Positions 7,882 to 64,000 of a stretch of DNA of 64,000 nt are shown here, piece by piece; the stretch's first letter is position 1; every line of letters begins with the position of its first letter. Made by a program: the position numbers and the translations under genes. The notes beneath the pieces were generated by a model that saw only the letters and a list, made by a program, of their open reading frames with translations, was not told the origin of the DNA and did not search any database. Source of the DNA: Candidatus Kerfeldbacteria bacterium (GTDB lineage Bacteria; Patescibacteriota; Patescibacteriia; SBBC01; CAIJZX01). The stretch lies in contig JACPSJ010000001.1 of NCBI GenBank assembly GCA_016193315.1, forward strand, positions 219,981 to 283,980. The letters are read 5' to 3'.

Positions 7882-10015
7882 ATGGAACCTAAACGGTTCT
7901 CCATCGACATCGGTGGTCGTGAATTGTCCCTCGAGACCGGCCAGCTGGCTGGTCAAGCCAATGGTGCGGTCACCGTTCGCTATGGTGAGACGGTGGTTTT
8001 GGCCACCGCCACGATGAGCAAAAAACTGCGGGAAGGGATCGATTTCTTCCCGCTGCTGGTCGATTACGAAGAGCGGCTCTACGCCGCCGGCAAGATCAAG
8101 GGTTCACGCTTCATTAAGCGCGAGGGCCGAGCCAGCGACGACGCGATCTTAACGGCCCGCCTGGTCGATCGCTCGATTCGCCCACTGTTTGATCAAGCCA
8201 TGCGAAATGACATCCAGGTGGTGATTACCGTTCTGTCGTGGGACCAGGAAAACGACGCCGATGTGCTGGCCCTGATCGGCGCTTCCACGGCGCTGATGAT
8301 CTCAAATATTCCGTGGGCCGGTCCGATCGGCGCCATTCGGGTCGGTCGGATCAACGGCGAATGGGCGCTCAACCCGACCTATGCGGCGCGGGACAAGAGC
8401 GATCTCGACATGGTCTTGGCCGCCAAGCGTGACGAGCACATGATGATTGAGGCCAGCGCTGGCGAAATCGACGAAGCGGTCGTTCTTGAAGGGCTGGAAT
8501 TCGCCCATAAGCACATTCGTCAGGTCATCGACCTGATCGAACAGGTGACCGCCGCGGTCGGACAACCGAAGCTGGCGATCGATACCAACGTCCTGTCGCC
8601 AGAAGAGCAGGCGGCCCGGGAAAAGCTAAAAACTAAGGTGCTGACTTTCTCCAATGGCAAATTACGGCAGATCTGGAAAACCAAGGACAAGCTGGAGCGT
8701 GAAGAAGCGATTACTAAGTTGACGGAAGAGCTTGATCAAGTCCTCAAGGCGGACAATGAGGTCAGTAAAGAGCAGCGGCTGGACGGCAAACACTTGCTCG
8801 AACAGCACCTCGATGACGAGGCGAGGCAGATGGTGTTAGATGAGGGAGTCCGGGTCGACGGCCGGAAACTCGATGAAATCCGCCCGCTGTCGGCCATCGT
8901 CGGTCTGGTGCCGCGGACGCATGGATCCGGTCTCTTTCAGCGCGGTGAAACGCAAGTCCTGTCACTCGTAACGCTGGGCTCGCCGGGTGATGAGCAATTG
9001 CAAGACACGATGGAGCTGACCGGCAAGAAACGCTACATGCACCATTATAACTTTCCCGGCTTTTCGACTGGCGAGGTGGCGCCGATTCGGAGCCCAGGCC
9101 GGCGCGAGATCGGCCACGGCGCCCTAGCCGAAAAAGCGCTATTGCCAGTGCTGCCAGCCAAAGAACAATTCCCCTATACCATTCGGGTGGTGTCCGAGGT
9201 CCTATCGTCGAACGGTTCGACGTCGCAAGCGTCAGTCTGCGGCTCAAGCTTAGCCTTGATGGATGCCGGTGTACCGAGCCGCACGCATGTAGCCGGTATC
9301 GCCATGGGCCTGATCAGCGATCAGACCAGTCCCCGTCCGCATCTCGGCCGAAGCCCTGGCCGGAGCCAAGAAAGCACGGGCCCAGATTCTGGAAGTGATG
9401 GCCCAAGCGATCGCCACGCCACGACCGGAATTGTCGAAATACGCGCCGCGCATTATTGCCATCAAGATCGATCCGGAGAAAATCCGCGACGTCATCGGCC
9501 GCGGCGGTGAAACGATCAATGAGATCATCGACGAGTGCGGCGGTCCGGATGTGATGAAGATCGACATCGAGCAGGACGGGACGGTCTATATCACCTCGAC
9601 CAAAGCCGACATGGCTCAGAAGGCCAAGACTTGGATTGAGAATTTGGTCAAAGACCTGCAGGTCGGTGAGGTTTACGAAGGGACGGTGACCGAGATAATC
9701 CGCGACCGGATGCGTGGTAATGAGATCGGGGCTATTGTCGAGGTCCTACCCGGCAAGGATGGGATGGTCCACATTTCCAACATCTCCCACACCCACATCC
9801 CGAACGTCTCAGACGTCCTGAAGATCGGCGATAAAGTCAAAGTAAAAGTAATGGAAGTCGACAAGGAACGCGGCCGCGTCAGCTTATCGATGAAGGCGCT
9901 GCAGCCAGGACCAGAAGGCGCCTTCGGCCTGGAACAGCCCCGCCAACGCCCGGGCGGATTCCGCGGCGACCGCGGACACCGCGACCGCGGCCCGAGGCAT
10001 CGGACTCGATTCTAA
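7882..10015 (+). pseudogene. pnp: Polynucleotide phosphorylase (PNPase), disrupted in this sequence. Frame 1 covers 7882 to about 9349 and frame 2 runs from about 9314 to 10015. About 35 aa spanning the conserved catalytic motif of the second RNase PH domain is absent.
   Basis: The N-terminal RNase PH domains are intact through AGIAMGLIS...HLG in frame 1. Frame 2 then resumes at ...EALAGAKKARAQILEVMAQAI, followed by the KH domain (IIAIKIDPEKIRDVIGRGGETINEI) and S1 domain (VGEVYEGTVTEII...GRVSLSMKA). The DMDFKVAGT segment is not found in any frame. Confidence 0.8.
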
Positions 10016-52829: not shown

Positions 52830-53756
52830 ATGGGTCGCTGGCTGATCGTCCTGTGGCTGGCCGGTTGGGCGACCGGGGTGACCGCTCAGTCCGACATACC
52901 GCTCGTTCCCGAACCAAAAGCCATTGATTTCAAGCCGGAGGTGCCGCTGCCGACATTTGCCGGCGGACCGATCAGCGCCGCCACCTTTGCCGAGTACATC
53001 CGCGCGGTGTTTGTGGCTTTTGTCTGGATCGTCGGTATTCTAGCCGTGGTGATGGTCGTCTACGGCGGGGTCAAGTGGGTGGCCGCCGCCGGCAATCCCG
53101 GGCGGATCACCGACGCGCGGGAAACAGTCAACAGCGCCATCATCGGGCTGATCATTGCCTTGGTATCAGTCGTGCTGCTCAACCTGATCAGCCCCCGCCT
53201 GACCCAATTTCCCGGTCTGACCCTGTTGTCGGTCAAAGGAACGCCCTTAGAATTTGACAACGTCGTCGGCATCCACGGCGAAGGCCAAGCTGGGCAGGCG
53301 TGCAACTTGCATACCGACAAATCCTGCCAGCTATTCAATGTGACGATGAGCTGGCCGGTTAGTAACGTCACGGAGCGCGGGATTAGCAGCCCGATCGGGC
53401 CCCGGCGGGTCGTGGGCGCAGCCAGCGCCTCGTCCTGCCACCCGGGCACCGATTTTAAGACCGATCGTCAAACCGGCAAAGAAGTTCGAGCCATGCACAG
53501 CGGAACGATTCGTCTCGATCCCAGGCGGCCGTGTAATGAAGCGGCACTGTTTGTGGACGGCGATGGGTTCTCCACGCGCTACGTTCACATCTCCAGTGTG
53601 GCGGTGCGGGAAGGTCAAAAGGTCCGCCCGGGTGATCTAATCGGTTACAGTGGCGGCGACCCCAAAGTGGCCGGCAACTGCAGTTCCGCGCCGCACCTGC
53701 ACGTCGAGCTCTACATTCTCAACCGGCTGGCTGATGTCGCGGCCTGTATTGACTAG
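52830..53756 (+). CDS. Pilin-like module, paralogous to 50491-51573, fused to an M23 (LytM) peptidase domain
   Basis: N-module about 80% identical to the paralog (VYGGVKWVAAAGNPGRITDARETVNSAIIGLIIALVSVVLLNLISPR). M23 motifs CHPGTDFKTD (HxxxD) and SAPHLHVELY (HxH). Confidence 0.6.
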   Translation: MGRWLIVLWLAGWATGVTAQSDIPLVPEPKAIDFKPEVPLPTFAGGPISAATFAEYIRAVFVAFVWIVGILAVVMVVYGGVKWVAAAGNPGRITDARETVNSAIIGLIIALVSVVLLNLISPRLTQFPGLTLLSVKGTPLEFDNVVGIHGEGQAGQACNLHTDKSCQLFNVTMSWPVSNVTERGISSPIGPRRVVGAASASSCHPGTDFKTDRQTGKEVRAMHSGTIRLDPRRPCNEAALFVDGDGFSTRYVHISSVAVREGQKVRPGDLIGYSGGDPKVAGNCSSAPHLHVELYILNRLADVAACID

Positions 53757-53917
53757 AACTCATTTCAAAACCTCATTTTGGCTGCCAGGCCCGGTTTCGG
53801 GCTGCGGCTGGCGGCTCGGGCTCAGTGTATCTCCAATACATTTCACCCTCCGCCGCAGCGCCTCGCCCGCGAAACCGACCATTTCACCATGAAAGCAGGT
53901 TTTGAAATGAGTTCTAG
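53753..53917. repeat. 165-bp element bounded by perfect 21-bp inverted repeats, placed exactly between two convergent stop codons
   Basis: CTAGAACTCATTTCAAAACCT (53753-53773) and AGGTTTTGAAATGAGTTCTAG (53897-53917) are perfect reverse complements. Both arms include the TAG of the adjacent gene (52830-53756 on the plus strand; recG on the minus strand). The interior has the GCCCGGTTTCGGGC hairpin and direct repeats. Confidence 0.55.
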
Positions 53918-53919
53918 GC

Positions 53920-55989
53920 CTATTCGCGGTGGAAGGCGAGACCATGATGGTCGGAGTTCGGAATCAACTGTGGGACAAGGCCCGAACGGTGGGCGATGAT
54001 ATCGCGCGCGGCCAGGCGCGCCGCCTCCATCAGCGCCGTGTCTAGCAAGGTGGCCAACTGCCAATCCGGCAGCCCGGACTGGCGTAACCCGTAAAGGTCG
54101 CCGCCGCCGCGCAGCTCAAGATCTAATTCGGCCAAGCGATAGCCGTCGTCGATCTTAGCTACCCGATGCAAACGATCGAGCATGGCTTCACTTGTCTGGT
54201 CGGTGACGAGAAAACAGCGACTCGGTCGAGAGCCGCGTCCGACCCGGCCGCGAAGTTGATGGAGCTGGGCCAACCCGAATCGTTCCGCCCCTTCGATGAT
54301 CATCAGCGTCGCGTTGGGGACGTCAATGCCGACCTCAATGACCGTGGTGCTGACCAGGAGGTCAAGCTGGTGTTGTCGAAACCGTTGCAGGATCTGGAGA
54401 CGCTCGTTGGCCGGCAATGATCCGTGGAGTAGGCCGATCCGCAGTTTCGGCCAGGCGGCGGTCAGCCGTTCGGCCTCGCTGGTGGCGGCTCGGACTCCGA
54501 GCGCATCCGATTCGACGATCAGGGGAGTAATGACGAAGACCTGCTCACCGCGGCCGACGGTTTCCGTGGTCACTCGATCGACCTGGGCTCGACCAGCCGG
54601 TCCGATGACCGTGGTCGGGATCGGCTGGCGACCAACCGGTTTGTGTCGGAGCGCGGAAATGCTGAGCTGACCGGTTAAAAACAAAGCCAGCGTTCGGGGG
54701 ATGGGCGTGGCGGTCAGACTGAGGAAGTGCGGCATTGGCTGGCCGGCGGCAATTTGCCGTTCCAGAAGTTGTTGACGCTGCTGAACCCCAAACCGCTGCT
54801 GTTCGTCAATGATCACCAAGCCGAGACGGTGCCAGCCAACAGTTTCCGCTAGCAGGGCGTGGGTGGCGACGACGAGATTGATGGTGCCGGACTGCAATCG
54901 CGCGGTGAAATCCGACCGACTGATCGGGCCACGCTGGCCGGCGAGGCGCAGCCCGCTGCTTGACAGGAACCCAACGCTCGCGTGTTCAGCCGGCAACAAC
55001 GTGCTCAGGGTTTGCCAATGCTGTTCAGCCAGCACCACCGTCGGCGCCAGCCAGGCGACCTGCCAGCCGCCAAGAACGGCGTTGAAGGCGGCCATCGCCG
55101 CCACCAAGGTTTTCCCCGAGCCGACGTCGCCTTGGAGCAGTCGGGCCATCGGTTCGGTCCGCTGCAGGTCCTGAAGTATTTGCCAGGCCGCTAAACGCTG
55201 GTCATGGGTGAGGGGAAACGGCAATTGGCGGACAAAGGCCCGGATGTCTGCCTGGCGGAAGGGAATGGTTGGCGCGGGGTGGCGCTGGCTGAGCGTCGCC
55301 GCATGCTGCCAGCGCAGCTGCCAGGCCAGGAGCTCATCGAATTTCAAACGGCGAACCGCCGCCGCGGCGGCTTCGGGCGAGGTGGGAAAATGAATTTGCC
55401 TGAGCGCCTCGGCTCGCTCGCTCAAGTCAAGTGACTGGCGTATGTCAGCCGGCAGCGTCTCCGGCACCAGGCTGATGAGGGCTACGGCCTGCTTCATCAC
55501 CCGGCGGATTTGCCATTGCGATAGCCCAGCTGTCGACGGGTAGACTGGTACCAGTTTCTCGTGGCTGGGATTAGCGGTCGGTCGTTCGTAGAACGGGTTT
55601 TGGAGTTGGAGTTTGCCTTGCTTGGTCCGGCTGACGCGACCGGATAAATACAACCACTGCCCGATTTTGAACCAGGTCGCTAAGTACGGCTGGTTGAACC
55701 AGACCACGGCCAGCCGCCCGCCGGTACGGTCGGTGACCACGGCTTCAGTCACGTTCATCCGCCGGCGCCAAGCCGGTCTGGCCTTGATCGAACTGATTTG
55801 CCCGACCACCGTCACTTCCTGGCCGACGGTCAGCCGGTCAATGCTCACCCGCTGGCGAAAATCCTGGTGGCGGATTGGAAAATGAAACAGGGCATCTTGC
55901 AGAGTGGTTAAACCCAAGGACGTGAATTTCTCGGCGATCTCTGGACGGACGCCGCGCAATGACTTGATTGGTGTCAGGAGCGAGGGCAT
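53920..55989 (-). CDS. recG: ATP-dependent DNA helicase RecG
   Basis: Wedge domain, helicase motif I DVGSGKTLVA, motif II IIDEQQRFGV, motif VI QLRGRVGRG and the C-terminal TRG region. The start was chosen at MPSLLTPIKSL. Confidence 0.9.
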   Translation of the reverse strand: MPSLLTPIKSLRGVRPEIAEKFTSLGLTTLQDALFHFPIRHQDFRQRVSIDRLTVGQEVTVVGQISSIKARPAWRRRMNVTEAVVTDRTGGRLAVVWFNQPYLATWFKIGQWLYLSGRVSRTKQGKLQLQNPFYERPTANPSHEKLVPVYPSTAGLSQWQIRRVMKQAVALISLVPETLPADIRQSLDLSERAEALRQIHFPTSPEAAAAAVRRLKFDELLAWQLRWQHAATLSQRHPAPTIPFRQADIRAFVRQLPFPLTHDQRLAAWQILQDLQRTEPMARLLQGDVGSGKTLVAAMAAFNAVLGGWQVAWLAPTVVLAEQHWQTLSTLLPAEHASVGFLSSSGLRLAGQRGPISRSDFTARLQSGTINLVVATHALLAETVGWHRLGLVIIDEQQRFGVQQRQQLLERQIAAGQPMPHFLSLTATPIPRTLALFLTGQLSISALRHKPVGRQPIPTTVIGPAGRAQVDRVTTETVGRGEQVFVITPLIVESDALGVRAATSEAERLTAAWPKLRIGLLHGSLPANERLQILQRFRQHQLDLLVSTTVIEVGIDVPNATLMIIEGAERFGLAQLHQLRGRVGRGSRPSRCFLVTDQTSEAMLDRLHRVAKIDDGYRLAELDLELRGGGDLYGLRQSGLPDWQLATLLDTALMEAARLAARDIIAHRSGLVPQLIPNSDHHGLAFHRE

Positions 55990-56135
55990 ACCTGTATTGT
56001 AGCAAAAGCACCGCGAAAGACCCTGCCTCAACCTTGTTTTTTTGGTCGACTTCTGGTACAATAGCGCGGTTAGAATTACGGTCTGACCCCCGCGGAGTAT
56101 CAGGAGTAGCATTAGTGGTCAGAATCATGACTCAC

Positions 56136-56170
56136 GCGCCCGTAGCTCAGTCCGGATAGAGCATCACCCC
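56136..56170 (+). other. tRNA 5-prime fragment (acceptor + D-arm), D-arm identical to the downstream tRNA-Arg. Its acceptor is perfectly complementary to a 3-prime fragment at 56411-56448.
   Basis: GCGCCCG-TA-GCTCAGTCCGGATAGAGC-A-TCACC...; no complementary anticodon-stem partner is found nearby. Confidence 0.4.
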
Positions 56171-56287
56171 GTAATGACTCGTCAAGACAAGCTTGACTCG
56201 TCCACGGGGCACGGCTTGCGGACCCCGTACAACCTCGCTACGTTCAGTCTACGGGGCCAGGCGGAAGAAGACCCTTTTTCGCTGAGC

Positions 56288-56362
56288 GTCCCTATAGCTC
56301 AGTCCGGATAGAGCGTCAGCTTGCGGAGCTGAAGGTCGCAGGTTCAAATCCTGCTGGGGACG
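56288..56362 (+). tRNA. tRNA-Arg-like, anticodon read as GCG; embedded in a 13-bp leader/trailer extension of the acceptor stem
   Basis: GTCCCTA TA GCTC AGTCCGGAT AGAGC G TCAGC TTGCGGA GCTGA AGGTC GCAGG TTCAAAT CCTGC TGGGGAC G. Flanks TTTTTCGCTGAGC / GCTCAGCGAAAAA are complementary. Confidence 0.8.
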
Positions 56363-56410
56363 CTCAGCGAAAAAAGAGGCAGGCTTGTCCCGTGGATTCT
56401 AGCGGAGCGA

Positions 56411-56448
56411 GGATCTATAGGGGATTCAAATCCTGTCGGGCGCGCCAG
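56411..56448 (+). other. tRNA 3-prime fragment (T-loop-like TTCAAAT + acceptor CGGGCGC + G + CCA), complementary to the 5-prime fragment at 56136
   Basis: CGGGCGC is the exact complement of GCGCCCG; the T-stem pairing is imperfect. Confidence 0.35.
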
Positions 56449-56449
56449 G

Positions 56450-56476
56450 GAAGGGTGGCCGAGTGGGTTGCGGCGG
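56450..56476 (+). other. tRNA-Ser-type 5-prime fragment (acceptor GGAAGGG + class II D-arm), followed by long GC hairpins
   Basis: GGAAGGG TG GCC GAGTGGGTTGC GGC, similar to the 5-prime end of tRNA-Ser(GCT); its 3-prime partner is at 56748-56810. Confidence 0.4.
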
Positions 56477-56622
56477 GGTGCGAACGCAAAGCAAATGAAC
56501 TGCTTCATTTGCGTCCCGCCGCAACGGGCGCGGCCATGTTCCGGAGGAACGAACGCGCCCAGGAAGAAAAATTTGGATTGAACCGGCGACCTTAAAAAAC
56601 GATCAACCGAGCAGCTCCTGGC

Positions 56623-56712
56623 GGAGAGGTGGCCGAGTGGCTGAAGGCAGCGGTTTGCTAAACCGTTATATGGTCAAAAGCCGTATCGTGGGTTCGAATC
56701 CCACCCTCTCCG
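56623..56712 (+). tRNA. tRNA-Ser(GCT), CCA encoded, flanked by 11-12-bp leader/trailer complementarity
   Basis: GGAGAGG TG GCC GAGTGGCTGAA GGC A GCGGT TTGCTAA ACCGT [long variable arm] GTGGG TTCGAAT CCCAC CCTCTCC G CCA. Confidence 0.85.
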
Positions 56713-56747
56713 CCAGGAGCTGGTGGATAATACTGAATGTATTAGGG

Positions 56748-56810
56748 ACGGTTTGCTAAACCTTGGTGCCGCAAGGCGCCTCGTGGGTTCGAATCCCACC
56801 CCTTCCGCCA
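56748..56810 (+). other. tRNA-Ser(GCT)-like 3-prime portion (anticodon arm ACGGT-TTGCTAA-ACCTT, variable arm, T-arm, acceptor CCCTTCC-G-CCA), complementary to the 5-prime fragment at 56450
   Basis: CCCTTCC is the exact complement of GGAAGGG. A further truncated copy, GAATCCCACCCCTTCCGCCA, lies at 56964-56983. Confidence 0.4.
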
Positions 56811-57098
56811 CGACCAACGAAGGTGAGGAGTGGCGACCTGTGCGCCGAAGGGCGCACGCGGAATGCGGCGGGATTCGAAGGGTTGGAGCGAGCTAGTCGC
56901 GTCGGGCGCGACGCGGCGAGCGATCGACGAGCCGCCGGTGGCGGGTCGTCGCAACCCAGGAAAGAATCCCACCCCTTCCGCCAGTTCGTATGTAGCGCGG
57001 AGCCGCGCGATAGTGGTTGGATCGGGCAGCCTTGTCCCGCCGATGGCGGAGAGTTGGCTGAGTGGTTTAAGGCGGCGGTCTCGTCACCGCACCGGAGC

Positions 57099-57185
57099 GG
57101 AGGGGTGGCTGAGTGGTCGAAAGCGACGGTCTTGAAAACCGTTAGACCTTCACGGGTCTCGTGAGTTCGAATCTCACCCCCTCCG
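57099..57185 (+). tRNA. tRNA-Ser(TGA)
   Basis: GGAGGGG TG GCT GAGTGGTCGAAA GCG A CGGT(C) CTTGAAA ACCG [variable arm GACCTTCACGGGTC] GTGAG TTCGAAT CTCAC CCCCTCC G. A degenerate 5-prime partial copy lies immediately upstream (57044-57098). Confidence 0.85.
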
Positions 57186-57520
57186 CCCTGGTGCGGGATC
57201 CCGTCTATTTTCTTTGATATTATAGGGGCGGGAAAAACCGCTAAACCTGCAAAGGTTTCGTAGGTTCGAATCCTAACGCCTCCGCTCCCGTCATGAGTCT
57301 TGTCCCTCAGAGCCGGATCCGGCTTCGCCGTAAAAACCGTCAGTCATGAAAAGGTCTCGTGGGTTCTCCGCCTCCGTTCTCCCTGCAACATCGGGCGGAT
57401 CCGCCGCAGCTTAAAAAAAAAGCGGAGGCGGAGAATCTCACCCCTCTGCTTTGTTCGCGGATCCCGCTAACCTTTGATTCTCTAAAATAAGAAGCGGGGA
57501 AAACCGTAAAAACATACAGG
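57186..57520. repeat. Degenerate tRNA-derived repeat region with GGATCC-centred GC palindromes
   Basis: Repeated tRNA 3-prime-end-like pieces (GGTTCGAATCCTAACGCCTCCGC, GGGTTCTCCGCCTCCG, GAATCTCACCCCTCT). Palindromes GCGGGATCCCG, GCCGGATCCGGC, GGGCGGATCCGCC and GCGGATCCCGC. 10-bp inverted repeat TCCGCCTCCG/CGGAGGCGGA. Confidence 0.4.
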
Positions 57521-57682
57521 GACAACTGAACTACTAATCCCTTTTTCCACAATTTATAAATCGAATGTCTAAGATCCCAGATGACCACGAAGCGAGTCCT
57601 TCGGGACAACCGCCTCCGCAAAAAACTGGCGTTGTGCGTCACGAAATCGATGCGAGAGATGTCAACCTAGTTTGACGGCTCG

Positions 57683-58591
57683 ATGACCAGAATTGTGGTG
57701 ACGCAGAATCTTGGCCTTAGTCTCGATCAGGTTGGGCGCTTGAGAAAATTAGGCCAAGTTAAGACTTACGATCGTCTGGCCAAGTCGCCGGAGGAGTGGT
57801 TGAAACGTTGCGCCGGCGCGGACATTATTTGTACCGGGAAATTTGGGCTGCGCGACAAAATTTACGAACTCCAGAACGTCTTTATAGCGGTCCCGTTCGT
57901 TGGCGTCGGGTGGATAGACCAAGAAAAAATCAAACAACGCAACATCAAAGTCGCGAACGCACCCGGGAGCAACAAGGACGCCGTGGCTGAATGGATAACA
58001 TACATGATACTCAGTCTTTTCAGGCGGTTCCCGGTATTTGTCAATGCGAAGAAGCGGCAATGGGGCGACATTCCAGACGCCACGAGCAGCCTAACCGGCA
58101 AAACGGTAACGATTCTTGGACGGGGGAATATCGGCACTCGGGTCGGCAAGCTCTGCCAAGTCTTCGACATGGACGTGAAGTACTTTACCCGGGGAGAAAA
58201 TCTCTACCACGTCATTCGTGACGCTGATGTCGTTGTCGACTGCCTTAGTCTTAACCCCAGCACCAGGGGGCTGCTTGATAGAGAATTCTTCCAGCACATG
58301 AAGCGCGGCGCCTTTTTCATCACCCCCACCGGTAAAGAAATTTGGGATGTAGACGCATTATTTGAGGCCTTGGATAAGGGCCCCCTCAAGGGCGCGGCGA
58401 CTGATGCTGGGAGCGTGCAAGTGGGCAATATCGAGGACGATTTCTACCAGCGGCTGCTCAGCCATCCTAAGTTATTGGTTACACCGCACATCGCGTACAA
58501 TACGGACATCACCAACCGGGTTGGCGGCGACATGATGATCAGCAATATTAGGGCTTGGCTAAATGGCAAACCCACTAACCTATACACATAG
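57683..58591 (+). CDS. D-isomer-specific 2-hydroxyacid dehydrogenase family (NAD-binding)
   Basis: Rossmann motif ILGRGNIGTRVG, catalytic region including HIAYNT; about 50% GC. Confidence 0.8.
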   Translation: MTRIVVTQNLGLSLDQVGRLRKLGQVKTYDRLAKSPEEWLKRCAGADIICTGKFGLRDKIYELQNVFIAVPFVGVGWIDQEKIKQRNIKVANAPGSNKDAVAEWITYMILSLFRRFPVFVNAKKRQWGDIPDATSSLTGKTVTILGRGNIGTRVGKLCQVFDMDVKYFTRGENLYHVIRDADVVVDCLSLNPSTRGLLDREFFQHMKRGAFFITPTGKEIWDVDALFEALDKGPLKGAATDAGSVQVGNIEDDFYQRLLSHPKLLVTPHIAYNTDITNRVGGDMMISNIRAWLNGKPTNLYT

Positions 58592-58622
58592 TCGTTTTTG
58601 ACATCGACTCGCATCGATCGAA

Positions 58623-59144
58623 ATGGCGAAGTCAGTTCTCGTAACCGGCATTTCTGGCTCAGGTAAGTCATCTATTTGCCACGAACTCCTCAGGCGTGGC
58701 TTCTCGGCCATGAGCTTGGATGCTGTGCCGGGCCTGTGTTACGCCCGGGACAGAACCACCGGACGAATCATTCATCAACCACGCAATGACTTGGTGTCTG
58801 TCATGCAGCGGGACTGGATTTGCGATCGAGGGCGTCTACAGAAACTGATTGGCCAGACTCTGCGGGACCCAACTTTCTATTGCGGAATCGCTTCCAACAT
58901 GAATGAACTTCTGTCACTGTTTGACCAAGTATTCTTGCTGGTCGCCAGCCCAAAAACCATTCGACTTCGATTAGCGATGCGAACCAATAATGATTTTGGT
59001 CATGATCCGGCAGTTCAAGATTGGATTGTCGGCTGGAAAGATTCATGGGAAGGTCAAGTCCAGAAGAACGGGGCGGTTAGCACCAATGCCGATCGGCCGG
59101 TTGATCGAGTCGCGGATGAAATTATTCAAAACAGCAAGCCGTGA
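58623..59144 (+). CDS. P-loop NTPase/kinase (AAA_33-like)
   Basis: Walker A VTGISGSGKSS. Confidence 0.5.
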   Translation: MAKSVLVTGISGSGKSSICHELLRRGFSAMSLDAVPGLCYARDRTTGRIIHQPRNDLVSVMQRDWICDRGRLQKLIGQTLRDPTFYCGIASNMNELLSLFDQVFLLVASPKTIRLRLAMRTNNDFGHDPAVQDWIVGWKDSWEGQVQKNGAVSTNADRPVDRVADEIIQNSKP

Positions 59145-59264
59145 GCCGACGCACCGATAATACACAACCAGGCCAGTTTAGGGCCGTGATGTTGTTTTGA
59201 ACGGGAGGTTTCATCAGCGGCCGAAAGCCATCGACAACAGTCTCCCAGGGCGTCGAGCTTCCGG

Positions 59265-59783
59265 TTGGTGGGGCCTGTATGCTATCATGCTGTCATGCCC
59301 GACCCCCACCCCCGCGGCGACATCCTGATGAGCTGGACGTTTCCGGAGTTCGACCAGCACCAACGCAGTCGCGCCTGGTACTTGTGGTTCATGGCGGCCG
59401 TTATCGCCTTCTTGGGCTACGCCATCTGGGCGGCTAATTACACCTTTGCCTTTATCATTTTCTTGGCCGCCTTCATTCTGGTTGTCCGCTTGCGTCGTCG
59501 ACCCCTGCCGGTGACGGTAGCCATTCGCGAAGAGGGAATTGAGGTCGGCCAGCGTTTTTGGACGTGGCGCGAGCTGAAAGAGTATTGGATCATCTACCGT
59601 CCGCCGGAAACAAGAAAGCTGTACCTCGAGTTCAAAGGCGCCTTTCGCCCGGCGCTTGACATCTCGCTCGAGACTCAGAACCCGCTCAAGATCCGACAAG
59701 TACTAAATGAGTTCCTGCTCGAGAACACCAAGCGCGAAGAAGAGCCAGTCAGCGACCAATGGTCGCGGGCCCTGAAAATCTAG
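59265..59783 (+). CDS. Hypothetical membrane protein
   Basis: Two TM helices (WYLWFMAAVIAFLGYAIWAANYTFAFIIFLAAFILVV). Confidence 0.35.
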   Translation: MVGPVCYHAVMPDPHPRGDILMSWTFPEFDQHQRSRAWYLWFMAAVIAFLGYAIWAANYTFAFIIFLAAFILVVRLRRRPLPVTVAIREEGIEVGQRFWTWRELKEYWIIYRPPETRKLYLEFKGAFRPALDISLETQNPLKIRQVLNEFLLENTKREEEPVSDQWSRALKI

Positions 59784-59791
59784 ACGGGCGT

Positions 59792-60430
59792 TCAGCCTTT
59801 CGCTAAGGCGCAGGCGAAAACATACCGCGCGCCGCGCCGGCGCAAGGCTTGGGCACAGGCGGTCATGGTCGCGCCGGTGGTGATGACATCGTCAACCAGC
59901 AGCCAGGTGTCGGTCGGTAGCTCGGCCACGGCCGTGAAAGCATCGGCCACGTTCTTCTGACGTTCATCGGCCGACAGGGCGGTTTGGGTCTCGGTGTCTC
60001 TCGTGCGTCGCAAAACCGGCACCAGCGGGCGACCGGTTATCTTTCCAACCGCTCGGGCGATGAGTTCGGACTGGTTAAAACCGCGGGCTCGCTGCCGGCG
60101 CGGATGGAGCGGCACCGGCACGATGGTGCTTGTTTTTGGTAACCTCGCCAAGTCCGATTCGAGCGGTCGGAGCAGCTCGCCAAGCAGTTCTTCGGCCGCC
60201 GTCCAGTTCGAGTACTTAAGACGTTGAATGAATGCTTTGAGCGGCGGGCAATCGTAGCCGGCTCGAATGTAGACCGACTGGCAGCCGACCAGTTTGACGG
60301 CCTCGACCGTCGGCGCCATTGCCAGCTGCTGATGTGCCGCTTGACACAACCACTGTCCCTCATGGGAACAATGAACGCACAGCGGTGGGAGTAGCCAGTT
60401 CATGAGTTGGTTGGGGAGGCTGGTTAACAT
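59792..60430 (-). CDS. comFC: ComF-family phosphoribosyltransferase-domain protein
   Basis: N-terminal Cys cluster (CVHCSHEGQWLCQ) and the PRTase motif LLVDDVITTGATM. Confidence 0.75.
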   Translation of the reverse strand: MLTSLPNQLMNWLLPPLCVHCSHEGQWLCQAAHQQLAMAPTVEAVKLVGCQSVYIRAGYDCPPLKAFIQRLKYSNWTAAEELLGELLRPLESDLARLPKTSTIVPVPLHPRRQRARGFNQSELIARAVGKITGRPLVPVLRRTRDTETQTALSADERQKNVADAFTAVAELPTDTWLLVDDVITTGATMTACAQALRRRGARYVFACALAKG

Positions 60431-60490
60431 AAAAGAGAGTCGCCTGACCTCGAGTCAGGTGGAGTAGAGTCCGGCCAAGCCTGGCAATAT

Positions 60491-63076
60491 CTACGCTGCC
60501 CGTCGAGTTTGTTTCTCGATCACGACGGCTTTGTTCTTTACCCCAATCCGGACCGCCTGTCCATTCTTGACCCGGCCGTCAAGCAACATCCCGGCCAGAG
60601 GAGTTTCCACTTGTTCCTGGATGATGCGACTGATCGCGCGGGCCCCGTAATCAGGACTGAAACCAAGCTCGGCGATCTTAGCCCGCGCTTGGGCTGTCAG
60701 TTTCAAGCGGATGGCCTGTTCATCAAGCCGGCGCTGGAGATCAGCTATTTGCAGTTCAACGATCCGTTCAACGGCCGCCTGATCGAGCGGTCGGTAGACG
60801 ACAATCTTGTCGATGCGGTTCAAGAATTCCGGTCGGAAGGTGCGGTCGACTTCAGCCAGCACCCGCTCCTTCAGTTGTTCATAACGCTGTTTCAATTCTT
60901 GTCGCTGGCCATGATCGCGAGCTTCAAAGCCGATTGACTGCGCTTGGTTGAAGCTCTGCAAACCGATGTTCGAGGTCATGATGATGATGGCGTTCTTGAA
61001 ATTGATGGTCTTGCCGACGGCGTCGGTGAGGTGACCTTCGTCAAGCACTTGGAGCAGGAGGTTGAACAGATCGGGGTGGGCTTTTTCGATTTCATCGAAC
61101 AGCACTACCGCGTACGGTTTCCGCTTGACGGCGTCGGTTAGCTTAGCTCCCTCTTTGTAGCCGACGTAACCGGCCGGGGCGCCGATCAGCTTGCTGATGT
61201 TGAAACTTTCTTGAAACTCGGACATGTCGATCCGGATCAAAGCGCTGTCGTCTTCGAACACCGTCCGGGCGATGACCTTGGCGGTTTCGGTTTTGCCAAC
61301 CCCCGACGGGCCGAGGAAAAGGAACGAACCGATCGGCCGGTTGGGGTTGCTCAAGCCGACCCGCGAGCGGCGAATGGAATTGGCGATCATGCGAATGGCG
61401 TCGTCTTGGCCGACGATCCGTTGCTTGAGCAGATCTTCTAGGTGGAGCAAGCGGTCGCGCTCGGCCTTGACTAAGTCGTGCAACGGCACGCCGGTCATCC
61501 GGGCCACCACTTCCGCCACCTCACGCTGACCGATGGCGCCGATGAAGGTCAGCGGTTGCTTTGCTTCGCGCTCGCGGAACTTGGCCAACTTGTGCTGAAT
61601 CGCCAACTCTTGGTTTTTCAGCTGCAGCGCCTGATCGAACTGCTCTTGCTGGACCGCCTGGTGTTTGCGCTGGCGGAGCTGATCGAGATCTTTCTCCAGG
61701 GCCCGAAGATGACGGAACGCGGCCGATCCGCCGCGGCCGACCTTGACTTTTGAGGCCGCTTCGTCAATCAGGTCGATGGCTTTATCGGGCAGGAAACGAT
61801 CTTGGATGTACCGCACGGACAGCCGCACCGACGCCTCCAACGCCTCATCATTGACGCGAACGGCGTGGAACTGTTCATAGTTGGCTTTGATGCCCCGCAG
61901 GATCTGCAGCGTTTCCTCGGCGCTCGGTTCGTTAACCACAATCGGCTGGAAGCGGCGTTCCAGGGCCGGGTCGGATTCGACGTGCTTCTTATATTCTTCG
62001 AGCGTGGTGGCGCCGATGGCACGGATCTGACCTTTGGCCAGCGCCGGCTTCAATAGGTTGGCGGCGTCCATCGACCCGGAGGCCGAACCAGCGCCGATGA
62101 TGGTATGCAGCTCGTCGATGAAGAGAATGATGTTCGGGTCGGCTTTGATTTCCTCGACGATTTGCTTCAGCCGCGATTCGAATTCGCCGCGGTAAATGGT
62201 CCCGGCCACCACCAGCCCGAGGTCCAGGGCCAGCACCCGCTTGCGCAGCAGCGTTTCCGGCACCTGCTCCTGAATGATTCGCTTGGCCAAGCCCTCGACG
62301 ATGGCCGTCTTGCCCACCCCCGGATCGCCGATCAGGACCGGGTTGCTCTTCGTCCGCCGGCTGAGGATGTGGATCAGTCGGTCGATTTCGGCCTGGCGGC
62401 CAATGACCGGATCGATAGATTTTTGAACCACCTCATCGGTCAAATCGGTGGTGAAGAAATCAAGGGCCGGCGTTTTGTCGCCGCGCGGGCGGCCCGGAGC
62501 CGAGGGCACGGCCACGGTTTCTTCGGCGCCGGCCTTGGCCTGGTCGAAGAAGCTAGAGATGTCGGGAAAACGGGTGGTGTTTTTCAGCACCATCAACAAC
62601 TGTCGTCGGGCCTCCCGGACATTCAGTTGATTCTCTTTCATGATTTGTTCGAGCGTCGGATCGCCGATCTCCAGCAAACCCCAGAACAGGTGTTCGGTGC
62701 CGACGTATTTGTGGTGGTAATTGGCGGCCACCAGCACGGATTTTTCCAGCGCCCGCTTGGCCGGTAGAGAAAACTTCAATTCGTCGGCCCGTAGGTTGAG
62801 CCCCGGCTTGAGGACCGGCTCGTTACGCAGACTGATTAGGTCGCGCAGGGTATCGAGCTTGATGCCGCTCTTGCGGAGAATCTCGTAGGCCACACCGCCC
62901 TTAGTCTCAGCCAATCCGAACAGCAGATGTTCCGGATTAATGTAGCGATTCTTTAATTCGACGCTCAACTCAGCCGCGAAGTTAATGGCACTCCGTAGAT
63001 GGGTGGTGAACTTTTGGAGTATTTCCGGCTTTAGATCGTCCATGGAGTGGCGGAGATTAGGCTGTAGTGTAGCCAC
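60491..63076 (-). CDS. clpC: ATP-dependent Clp protease ATP-binding subunit ClpC (class I Clp/Hsp100)
   Basis: Two Clp_N repeats; AAA-1 Walker A GDPGVGKT; a short UVR-like middle domain; AAA-2 GPSGVGKT; sensor motifs. The M-domain is too short for ClpB. Confidence 0.9.
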
Positions 63077-63234
63077 TCTTGAAGGACGTTGTCAATAACG
63101 TGCCGGAGGACAAGATAGTCTTCGCGCTGCGCTTCACCTCCGGCCAGCCGTTAACCTAAACCCGAAATCCTAAATCCTGGACTGACTGGTACCGTCCGTC
63201 GCCATCGATGAAGCGCGTCGTCGACTGATCGACG

Positions 63235-64000
63235 CTACGAATCAACACCCCCCATTGCCCGCAGCGCCGCCACTCGTTCCGGAATCGGCGGGTGAGTCGA
63301 GAATAACTTGGCCAGGCCGCGGACGCTCGGACCGAACGGATTGCTGATAAAGAGGTGGGCGGTGGCGTTGTTAGCGCGGCTCAGCGGCTCGGTCGTCTGG
63401 GCAATTTTCTCCAACGCCCGGGCCAAGCCTTCTGGATATCGTGTCAGCAAGGCGCCGGCGGCGTCAGCCAGGAACTCCCTGCGCCGGGACACGGCGAACT
63501 GGAGGAGTCGGGCAATGATCGGTGCTAGGATTAGCAGGACTAGGCCGATCAGAAGCAGTATGGCCTGAACCTGACCAGCGGAACGATTTCCGCCGCGACG
63601 ACCGCCGCCGAGCCAGCGGGTCCGCCAGAACAGGTCGCCGAACATGATGATGATGCCGACCAAGACGGTAACCAGGGTCATGAAGCGGATATCGAGGTTC
63701 CGGACGTGCGACAACTCGTGGGCCAGCACCCCTTCGAGTTCTTCGTTCTCGAGTCGCTCGACTGCACCAGTCGTGACGGCCACCGAGGCATGCTTCAGAT
63801 CTCGTCCAGTAGCAAAGGCGTTGATCTGCGGGCTATCGATCAGGTAGATCTGCGGCACCGGCAGGCCAGCGGTGATGGATAGGTTCTCGACCATTCGCCA
63901 CAGATAGGGATTGTCCTGACGGTCGATCGGCCCGTGGGCCCCGCTAGTGACCAAGGCCAGCCGGTCCCCGCCAAAGTAGCCACCGACGGCCATGCCGACG
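63235..64000 (-). CDS. htpX: HtpX-like M48 zinc metalloprotease; the N-terminus probably lies beyond the window end
   Basis: HELSHVRNLD (HExxH), a downstream EFLADAAGA glutamate ligand, and two C-terminal TM helices. Confidence 0.8.
   Translation of the reverse strand, partial: VGMAVGGYFGGDRLALVTSGAHGPIDRQDNPYLWRMVENLSITAGLPVPQIYLIDSPQINAFATGRDLKHASVAVTTGAVERLENEELEGVLAHELSHVRNLDIRFMTLVTVLVGIIIMFGDLFWRTRWLGGGRRGGNRSAGQVQAILLLIGLVLLILAPIIARLLQFAVSRRREFLADAAGALLTRYPEGLARALEKIAQTTEPLSRANNATAHLFISNPFGPSVRGLAKLFSTHPPIPERVAALRAMGGVDS

Follow-up and report, generated by a model that had tools for sequence, protein, structure and literature searches.

Intact tRNA genes nested within broken tRNA genes of the same anticodon in a Candidatus Kerfeldbacteria genome

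Partial tRNA genes left by integrating elements are commonplace (PMC9897764; 10.1101/2020.12.28.424599), and complementation by a tRNA that the element itself carries is known (PMC10865867). In the canonical form, as described by Reiter 1989 and Williams 2002 in the account cited by PMC9897764, integration into a tRNA gene leaves displaced 3' fragments. In this form, and in tycheposons (10.1101/2020.12.28.424599), past integrations are recorded as partial tRNA copies, which pile up beside the tRNA when events follow one another. In tRNA-dependent lysogeny (Guerrero-Bustamante & Hatfull 2024, PMC10865867), a phage enters a single-copy tRNA gene via a ~10-bp core and leaves it unrestored, providing a cognate tRNA of its own. 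Here we describe a tRNA locus from Candidatus Kerfeldbacteria, a lineage of the Candidate Phyla Radiation (CPR), in which three intact tRNA genes each lie between the 5' and 3' pieces of a second tRNA gene with an identical anticodon. The locus was analyzed in a 64-kb stretch of contig JACPSJ010000001.1, hereafter called the window, and all coordinates are window positions.

The locus resembles tRNA-dependent lysogeny in that a resident tRNA gene, probably the only copy, has been disrupted, neither junction restores it, and the insert holds a cognate copy (PMC10865867). That system, however, involves complete prophages that have a tyrosine integrase and a single fixed attB in an actinobacterial host, whereas the inserts in the window measure 200-280 bp, contain no gene but the tRNA and no integrase or prophage, and reside in a CPR host. 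Moreover, the break points vary here, and each nested tRNA is wrapped in a palindrome. The likeness to canonical integration is confined to two sub-features, namely a 20-nt repeat (56791/56964) and an array of tRNA-Ser 3' fragments. Canonical integration rebuilds its target as a hybrid gene and leaves only 3' fragments, whereas here matched 5' and 3' halves surround a complete foreign copy, and 5' fragments are present for all three genes. In the literature on nested or interrupted bacterial tRNA genes, we found no description of three adjacent cognate gene-within-dead-gene nests, of palindromes abutting position +1 of a tRNA, or of half-tRNA hairpin modules across CPR lineages.

Three intact genes inside three broken ones

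The nests occupy a 1.5-kb stretch, otherwise without genes, between recG (53920-55992, minus strand) and an open reading frame (ORF) resembling 2-hydroxyacid dehydrogenases (57683-58591). ARAGORN and Rfam identify three intact tRNAs in the window and no more; all are on the plus strand, at 56288-56362/3 for Arg(GCG), 56623-56715 for Ser(GCT) and 57098/9-57185/8 for Ser(TGA). All three are canonical tRNAs (61-69 bits with the Rfam tRNA model), and each is enclosed by pieces of a second gene for the same anticodon, a pairing that thus holds in three of three nests. The original prediction, made from the letters of the DNA without database searches, had described the Arg and Ser(GCT) nests, with coordinates that were off by a few bases at most, and had missed the Ser(TGA) nest. 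Its argument that seeing the same architecture twice speaks against chance is right: there are three nests here, and the architecture appears again in other CPR genomes. The layout is not an assembly artifact, because two independent Logan contigs from other sequencing runs (L103 and L104; L numbers denote loci and contigs outside the window) match the window base for base from 56136 on. L103 extends through the outer Arg 5' piece and its hairpins into the inner tRNA (~56340), and L104 ends in the outer 5' piece (~56162).

The outer pieces are homologous to tRNA genes found at the same positions in relatives, and they are damaged. Three segments of the outer Arg gene are identical to relatives' genes (Table 1), and its acceptor strands, GCGCCCG in the piece starting at 56136 and CGGGCGC in TTCAAATCCTGTCGGGCGC-G-CCA (56425-56447), are exactly complementary over 7 nt. 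The gene is interrupted by a 47-nt palindrome at position 31/32, positions 41-55 are garbled, and ATAGG is followed by an extra GGA directly before the T loop. Its 3' piece had been predicted to span 56411-56448; the part from T loop to CCA is indeed there, at 56425-56447, but the T stem is not intact. Approximately 200 nt, including the nested gene, separate position 40 from the T loop. We also considered whether 56399-56424 represents decayed tRNA positions 33-55; this assignment is uncertain, and a hairpin that is conserved in L101 takes its loop and 3' arm from this stretch. In the outer Ser(GCT) gene, the acceptor strands GGAAGGG and CCCTTCC are likewise exactly complementary, so that the complementarity originally predicted is confirmed for both genes. 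The 5' piece of this gene, GGAAGGG-TG-GCC-GAGTGG, is present as predicted but begins at 56449, 1 nt past the outer Arg CCA, rather than at 56450. Its 3' piece (56744-56810) retains an anticodon arm with one C.T mismatch, a 6-bp variable arm, a T arm and CCCTTCC-G-CCA. The outer Ser(TGA) halves flank a second tRNA-Ser 5' piece in addition to the intact Ser(TGA). Additional tRNA fragments are found at 56964-56983, 57048-57093, 57333-57384, 57421-57450 and 57609-57619.

The nested genes differ from the genes that enclose them. The body of the nested Arg (positions 8-67) is 95% identical to the tRNA of L098, and four of the seven acceptor pairs differ between nested and outer Arg, three of these being changed on both strands. 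For Ser(GCT), two of seven acceptor pairs differ, and the variable arms are unrelated. An encoded CCA is missing in the nested Arg and Ser(TGA), and is present in the outer pieces and in all Kerfeldbacteria relatives. Thus, because of the compensated changes in acceptor pairs, the variable arm and the CCA differences, the nested genes are not simple copies of the outer ones.

Each nested gene is surrounded by an inverted repeat that starts exactly at position +1, with the leader being the reverse complement of the discriminator (plus CCA) and trailer. The repeat is 18 bp and perfect for both Arg and Ser(GCT), and 19 bp at 89% for Ser(TGA); around Arg it goes on imperfectly to about 60 bp. Among the tRNAs with enough flank at all loci compared, such leader/trailer palindromes are rare: a perfect extension reaches 11 bp or more only for the nested Arg (13), the nested Ser(GCT) (11) and the Arg of L097 (16), with the remaining tRNAs showing 0-5 bp. 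L097, the sole other genome with a palindrome of this kind, also carries tRNA fragments. When the inserts are compared with miniature inverted-repeat transposable elements and other small transposons, paired ends are found in the Arg insert (CCCC...GGGG, 56223/56424) and the Ser(TGA) insert (TCCCGCC...GGCGGGA, 57035/57227), but not in the Ser(GCT) insert. The sequences of the palindrome arms are unlike between the cassettes, and no copy of the inserts was found elsewhere within the 64 kb, where the hairpins are limited to the tRNA locus. The long Arg stem contains five G.U pairs, and no A.C mismatches were counted. We considered selection on the sense-strand RNA as an explanation for this count and rejected it, because the antisense strand folds equally well or better in several loci; across loci, folding energy is about the same for sense and antisense, without strand bias. 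Two candidate sequence markers were also discarded. Hairpins of the form yCCCG...CGGGr, tried as the mark of a family, are common by chance in GC-rich DNA (125 in 1.17 Mb), and the arm-site-like motif YCCCGYRGAY is not enriched window-wide (5 observed vs 3.7 expected).

The original prediction had raised the possibility that splicing of the outer halves gives a second tRNA, across an intron containing another tRNA, and had named simple tandem tRNAs at the comparable locus as a finding that would refute it. Such simple tandem genes stand at the same positions in relatives (L096, L100 and L102). What speaks for splicing is the perfect complementarity of the outer acceptor strands, together with the behavior of Ser(GCT): when its outer halves were joined in silico, ARAGORN called 131 of 196 constructs as tRNA-Ser(GCT). 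The predicted second Ser(GCT) tRNA is therefore still callable, but it has a weak D stem, one anticodon-stem mismatch and no splicing signal. The other two outer genes are not restorable by joining, since only 1 of 35 Arg constructs was called Arg(GCG), a second series of 35 yielded one Ala call, and none of 240 Ser(TGA) constructs was callable. A scan for bulge-helix-bulge motifs (3-nt bulges, 4-bp helix) found none at five junction pairs even with outer helices of 2 or 3 bp allowed, against a background of 0.04-0.53 per pair at random places, and no group I/II intron or ribozyme family matched in 54000-64000 (Rfam, E<=1). The proposed check with the intron mode of ARAGORN did not recover any outer gene, and a lowered threshold produced one spurious minus-strand call. 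A spliced outer product would also be redundant, because each outer gene shares its anticodon with the intact gene inside it. Splicing of D-loop introns is not known in bacteria. Thus, we consider functional split tRNA genes to be a very improbable reading of this locus. The separated halves, with acceptor strands complementary between pieces, do recall the split, multi-intron and permuted tRNA genes of archaea and algae (PMC3978253, PMC4090602). In those disrupted genes, however, the exons are complete, bulge-helix-bulge motifs and a splicing endonuclease are present, and the pieces are the only copy of the tRNA; neither the motif, nor complete exons, nor sole-copy status holds in the window. 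Group I introns in Patescibacteria tRNA genes (10.1101/2025.07.03.662931) provide a parallel in the same phylum, in which the anticodon loop is interrupted and annotation tools overlook the gene, but here no group I model matches, the intervening DNA holds a tRNA, and the exons are damaged.

Table 1. Features of the nested tRNA locus, in window coordinates
Feature	Positions	Strand	Evidence or remark
Putative tRNA-operon promoter (TTGTTT, 17 nt, TACAAT)	56034..56062	+	Read from sequence; motif aligned in L096, L098, L102
Outer (ancestral) tRNA-Arg(GCG), positions 1-31	56136..56166	+	31/31 vs L098 tRNA-Arg positions 1-31; promoter-proximal slot of the intact gene in L096, L102
Palindromic insert CCCCGTAATG...CCACGGGG + CACG, splits outer Arg anticodon stem	56167..56213	.	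Hairpin type confined to this locus within 64 kb
Outer tRNA-Arg, positions 32-40, GCTTGCGGA, anticodon GCG	56214..56222	+	9/9 vs all Kerfeldbacteria Arg(GCG) genes
Left arm of ~60-bp imperfect inverted repeat around inner Arg	56223..56287	.	Includes CCCCGTACAACC...TACGGGG hairpin, common to L098
Intact nested tRNA-Arg(GCG), without encoded CCA	56288..56362	+	Rfam 69.3 bits; ARAGORN
Right arm of Arg inverted repeat	56363..56424	.	Perfect 18-bp stem 56275-56292 / 56357-56374; discriminator G56362 (last tRNA base) also paired
Outer tRNA-Arg, positions 56-78, T loop to CCA	56425..56447	+	23/23 vs L097 tRNA-Arg positions 56-78
Outer tRNA-Ser(GCT) 5' piece: acceptor, D stem, start of D loop	56449..56466	+	89% identical to inner gene; start agrees with Arg-Ser(GCT) tandem of L096
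Two strong palindromes after Ser 5' piece	56467..56560	.	
Inverted relic of tRNA-Arg variable/T-arm region	56578..56593	-	94% complementary to 56332-56347
Intact nested tRNA-Ser(GCT) (56623-56715) within perfect 18-bp leader/trailer palindrome	56612..56722	+	Rfam 61.1 bits; 94.6% identical to L102 Ser(GCT)
Outer tRNA-Ser(GCT) 3' piece, end of D stem to CCA	56744..56810	+	
153-nt hairpin-rich insert and perfect 20-nt repeat of Ser 3' end (56964-56983), att-like duplication	56811..56983	.	
Outer (L102-type) tRNA-Ser(TGA) 5' half, break after CTTG of anticodon loop	56999..57034	+	89% vs L102 positions 9-36
Second tRNA-Ser 5' piece, 51-nt tandem with intact gene	57048..57093	+	
Intact nested tRNA-Ser(TGA) (57099-57185, then CCC not CCA) in 19-bp palindrome, 89% complementary	57087..57196	+	Rfam 63.1 bits
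Outer (L102-type) tRNA-Ser(TGA) 3' half	57233..57285	+	92% vs L102 positions 37-88
Two further, more decayed tRNA-Ser 3' fragments, ~99-nt tandem units	57333..57450	+	GGATCC-centred palindrome in each spacer
Isolated 11-nt tRNA-Ser acceptor 3' fragment (ACCGCCTCCGC)	57609..57619	+	

The comparable locus in relatives

The loci of relatives were found via a large protein index and contig look-ups; contig scans with RecG reached only 34-44% identity in genomes and at most 46% in metagenomes. The RecG protein of the window is 100% identical to an NCBI protein annotated as Candidatus Kerfeldbacteria, and the next RecG relatives are no more than 62% identical. The order recG-Arg(GCG)-Ser(GCT)-Ser(TGA) is kept as plain genes in the CPR genomes L048, L001, L004 and L006, and the Kerfeldbacteria-like L096, L100 and L102 have simple, uninterrupted loci, with Arg and Ser(GCT) 33 nt apart in L096 and oriented as in the window. 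In relatives, a conserved promoter-like motif (TTGTTT, 17 nt, TACRAT) stands ahead of the first tRNA; in the window, the outer Arg 5' piece comes first after this motif, and the outer Ser(TGA) half comes after the outer Ser(GCT) region. Thus, the three outer genes are collinear with the ancestral operon, because order, spacing and promoter position match those of relatives. A consensus promoter scan gave no call at 56034..56062, so this putative promoter is assigned from conservation. The outer halves, then, are best read as dead remnants of the ancestral recG-side tRNA operon Arg(GCG), Ser(GCT), Ser(TGA). The orientation of tRNA-Arg(GCG) relative to recG is flipped in L094, L101, L048 and L001 compared with the window, L096-L100 and L102; because it differs between lineages, the gene was inverted in place at least once.

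Broken genes with hairpins recur in four other Kerfeldbacteria contigs and at a tRNA-Glu of Paceibacteria. In L098 (RecG 61% identical), an intact Arg is preceded, in this order, by GGGCGCCCGTAGCTC, a hairpin, CAGTCCGGA, another hairpin that begins with CCCCGTACAACC, and CAGGTGCCGCATCAG; CCCCGTACAACC is identical at 15 of 15 positions to window 56220-56234. L097 (RecG 62%) shows this type of layout in more decayed form, followed by an Arg in a 14-bp palindrome, and L107 (RecG 59%) has two 5' pseudo-fragments with hairpins in tandem upstream of its Arg. In L101 (RecG 56%), Arg is followed by AGGCTTG, a hairpin, TTCAAAT, another hairpin and GCCGGGCGCACCA, which together make a 3' pseudo-fragment. 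The stretch that follows tRNA-Arg in this genome and window 56375-56437 are about 83% identical. In L033 (Ca. Paceibacteria; 8690-9046), tRNA-Glu(TTC) has upstream of it a 5' pseudo-fragment that contains a 33-nt TCCCG...CGGGA hairpin, and 175 nt downstream comes a 3' fragment of 18 nt without mismatches, in a very highly structured region (z = -8). This nest is the same layout in another CPR class, for another tRNA. In two surveys covering 56 tRNAs, 5' fragments upstream of a tRNA were found only in L098, L033 and the window, with plain 3' fragments in L004 and L036. The modules are altogether absent from L096, L099, L100 and L102. Contigs L097, L098, L101, L104 and L107 end inside these loci, as expected because repeats break short-read assemblies; for the same reason, the phenomenon is probably under-reported.

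Origin of the nests

We think it somewhat more probable than not that each resident gene was split by inserted DNA carrying its own copy of the same tRNA, leaving the halves as relics. The ancestral genes would have been cut, in the anticodon loop of Arg, the anticodon loop of Ser(TGA) and the D loop of Ser(GCT), by about 200-280 bp of palindrome-rich DNA that brought in a complete tRNA gene with the same anticodon. The incoming copy would supply the function of the gene destroyed, and the split halves would decay; the insertion would be tolerated, and its later loss impossible, because the function of the destroyed gene would now depend on the incoming copy. We infer that the nests arose by insertion and not by local duplication, that the nested genes are in use, and that the carriers were either integrative elements, since whittled down, or small non-autonomous cassettes, of which only the tRNA and short palindromic flanks would be left. 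The alternatives to splicing offered in the original prediction, namely that small hairpin elements bearing a tRNA entered pre-existing tRNA genes, or that att-site duplication left relics, fit what was found: palindrome-rich inserts, a complete cognate tRNA in each, and a 20-nt att-like duplication.

Several observations weigh against insertion. The inserts are tiny, so all three carriers would need to have been deleted to about 200 bp, and no integrase, transposase or reverse transcriptase was found in or near them. The break points vary between D loop and anticodon loop, with a possible 7-nt repeat at positions 26-32 in L097, and one site-specific integrase is ill-suited to such a pattern. 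Direct repeats at the junctions are short and imperfect, or absent, and the arms, because their sequences differ between cassettes, are unlike the terminal repeats that a transposase recognizes. The identity of the nested Arg body to the tRNA of the local clade extends to a clade-specific D loop, which fits a local origin too. Finally, the hairpin-bearing fragments are alignable between genomes whose RecG proteins are 56-62% identical, which plain decay does not predict.

The main rival explanation dispenses with mobile elements. Local errors of replication or repair, in which heavily transcribed tRNA genes undergo fold-back synthesis and template switching at their stems, would generate partial direct and inverted duplications, of which one copy stays functional and the rest decay. 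Quasipalindrome or fold-back template-switch mutagenesis makes perfect inverted repeats seeded at a short pre-existing stem, whatever the sequence. A leader that is the exact reverse complement of discriminator (plus CCA) and trailer from +1 is what priming from a folded-back acceptor stem would give, and the unrelated arms of the cassettes, the inverted Arg relic at 56578-56593, the 51-nt and ~99-nt tandem partial repeats and the clade-specific D loop of the nested Arg body all agree with it, as does the nearly equal folding of sense and antisense strands, which makes the palindromes look like a product of the DNA level. The corrections known from quasipalindrome mutagenesis, however, involve few bases, whereas here extensions of 11-60 bp surround whole tRNA genes, and there is nesting besides. 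Moreover, a local copy should start out identical to its source, but the outer Arg has no changes in 63 nt relative to relatives, while the nested gene differs from it at four of seven acceptor pairs and is without CCA. The variable arms of outer and nested Ser(GCT) are likewise unrelated, and the same hairpin-bearing modules recur in distant genomes. We regard local fold-back synthesis as unlikely, albeit with a chance that is far from negligible.

Ordinary integrase scars would require repeated canonical integration into the 3' part of the genes, with att cores duplicated, the elements deleted afterward, and the 5' pieces incidental. The 153-nt insert bracketed by a perfect 20-nt duplication of a 3' end is consistent with this history, as are the Ser 3' fragments, which start where crossover classically takes place (the anticodon arm or the T loop) and are more decayed the farther away they lie; relatives L004 and L036 have plain 3' fragments, and relics of this sort are common in prokaryotes (PMC9897764; 10.1101/2020.12.28.424599). 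Canonical integration, however, rebuilds a hybrid tRNA and never leaves a free upstream 5' fragment, whereas 5' fragments are systematic in these loci, accompanying all three genes here and recurring in L097, L098, L107 and L033; in addition, the nested genes have their own matched acceptor strands, unlike the outer ones. Thus, ordinary att-site scars account for the 3' fragments but not for the 5' ones, and as an explanation of the whole locus they are doubtful. It is also conceivable that the fragment-plus-hairpin modules are maintained for some function, for example as decoy landing sites for tRNA-targeting elements or as a scaffold for processing of the operon transcript. Hairpins occupy the same position, after CAGTCCGGA, in L097, in L098 and twice in L107, with hairpin sequences that differ but a derived flank, GTGCCGCATCAG, that is shared; the similarity between window 56375-56437 and L101 is high for genomes with RecG only 56% identical, and the bias toward G.U over A.C in the long Arg stem would fit as well. 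Against this, folding energy shows no strand bias across loci, many close relatives (L096, L099, L100, L102) are without modules, the sequences are too few for a covariation test, and recent spread of one element family explains the similarity equally well. Maintenance for function therefore seems quite improbable to us.

Returning to insertion, a more specific and decidedly speculative version, which we rate as rather unlikely, is that CPR may harbor tiny gene-less "homing" tRNA cassettes. Such a cassette would consist of a palindrome-wrapped tRNA gene that, guided by cargo-target homology, enters the resident gene for that tRNA, kills it and takes its place. The palindrome could arise via snap-back self-priming at the acceptor stem, either of a copy of a 5'-matured, 3'-extended precursor or of single-stranded DNA, and the cassette, as a selfish tRNA gene, would enforce its own retention. 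Cassettes of this kind would explain the same-anticodon rule (three of three nests, plus Glu in L033), the complementarity of leader and trailer from +1, and the stacked 5' and 3' relics.

If the insertion explanation is true, insertions of a "destroy and replace" kind are turning over essential single-copy tRNA genes in streamlined CPR genomes, and would provide a route for horizontal exchange of tRNA genes, possibly as addictive selfish DNA, in a lineage with few known mobile elements. The palindromes abutting +1, together with hairpin-bearing fragments in distant genomes, point to a DNA (or cDNA) process not described for tRNA genes. For annotation, tRNA halves in Patescibacteria should be checked for a nested intact copy before they are called split or intron-containing genes.

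Traces of integrative elements and neighboring genes

The 20-nt repeat of the outer Ser 3' end is perfect (56791-56810 = 56964-56983, 20/20) and brackets the 153-nt hairpin-rich insert. Downstream of Ser(TGA) lie three progressively decayed Ser 3' fragments in units of ~99 nt. Short GGATCC-centered palindromes, such as GCCGGATCCGGC, occur at 57194-57207, 57311-57324, 57394-57405 and 57456-57467; the hairpin junction in L033 also reads AGGATCCCG. The junction CTTG/TCCC is found three times in this 1.4 kb vs four times in the other 62 kb, and the Arg junctions carry imperfect direct repeats of 8-10 nt (CTTGCGGAcC / CTaGCGGAgC). The ORFs between 51.5 and 63 kb encode RecG, the dehydrogenase, a kinase-like protein, DUF5673, a ComF-like protein, ClpB and a pilin/M23 protein, with no integrase among them. 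A search of a phage collection with the whole locus returned ordinary tRNA matches only. In a pattern scan of viral contigs, the 5' end of the nested Arg had no match, and the Arg body matched one tRNA array of a jumbo phage, in which the acceptor stem is unrelated.

Beside these tRNAs, relatives have a large serine recombinase, a ParB-like island and a Y1-transposase-like ORF. The last of these, in L102 (3121-3702), has a weak match to Y1 transposase (PF01797) and is placed within the tRNA cluster, with the Ser genes on one side and Arg on the other; nothing corresponds to it in the window, where tblastn found no match. Comparison with REP/RAYT or IS200-IS605 elements accordingly has this weak Y1_Tnp ORF to set beside hairpins that are confined to the tRNA locus. 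In L094 (177-1700), a large serine recombinase gene adjoins tRNA-Ser(TGA), and 15 nt after that tRNA comes GGAGGCG, its own first 7 nt; the junction CAATCTTTTATCGGAG of L094 is also found after Ser(GCT) in L096. These L094 and L096 junctions suggest elements that target the 5' start of tRNA-Ser. In the window, the dehydrogenase and AAA_18 kinase-like ORFs (57683-59144) follow directly after the Ser 3' fragment array and are missing at this position in L094, L100 and L102; they may be cargo of an old island. An Rfam match to the Yersinia small RNA Ysr141 at 54964-55192 was dismissed as a chance match, as it scores 49 bits vs a gathering score of 196 and lies inside the recG coding sequence. On the other side of recG, between its stop codon and the pilin/M23 ORF, a 26-nt inverted repeat at 53753-53917 (92% complementary) surrounds 113 nt and could be a small mobile element or a bidirectional terminator.

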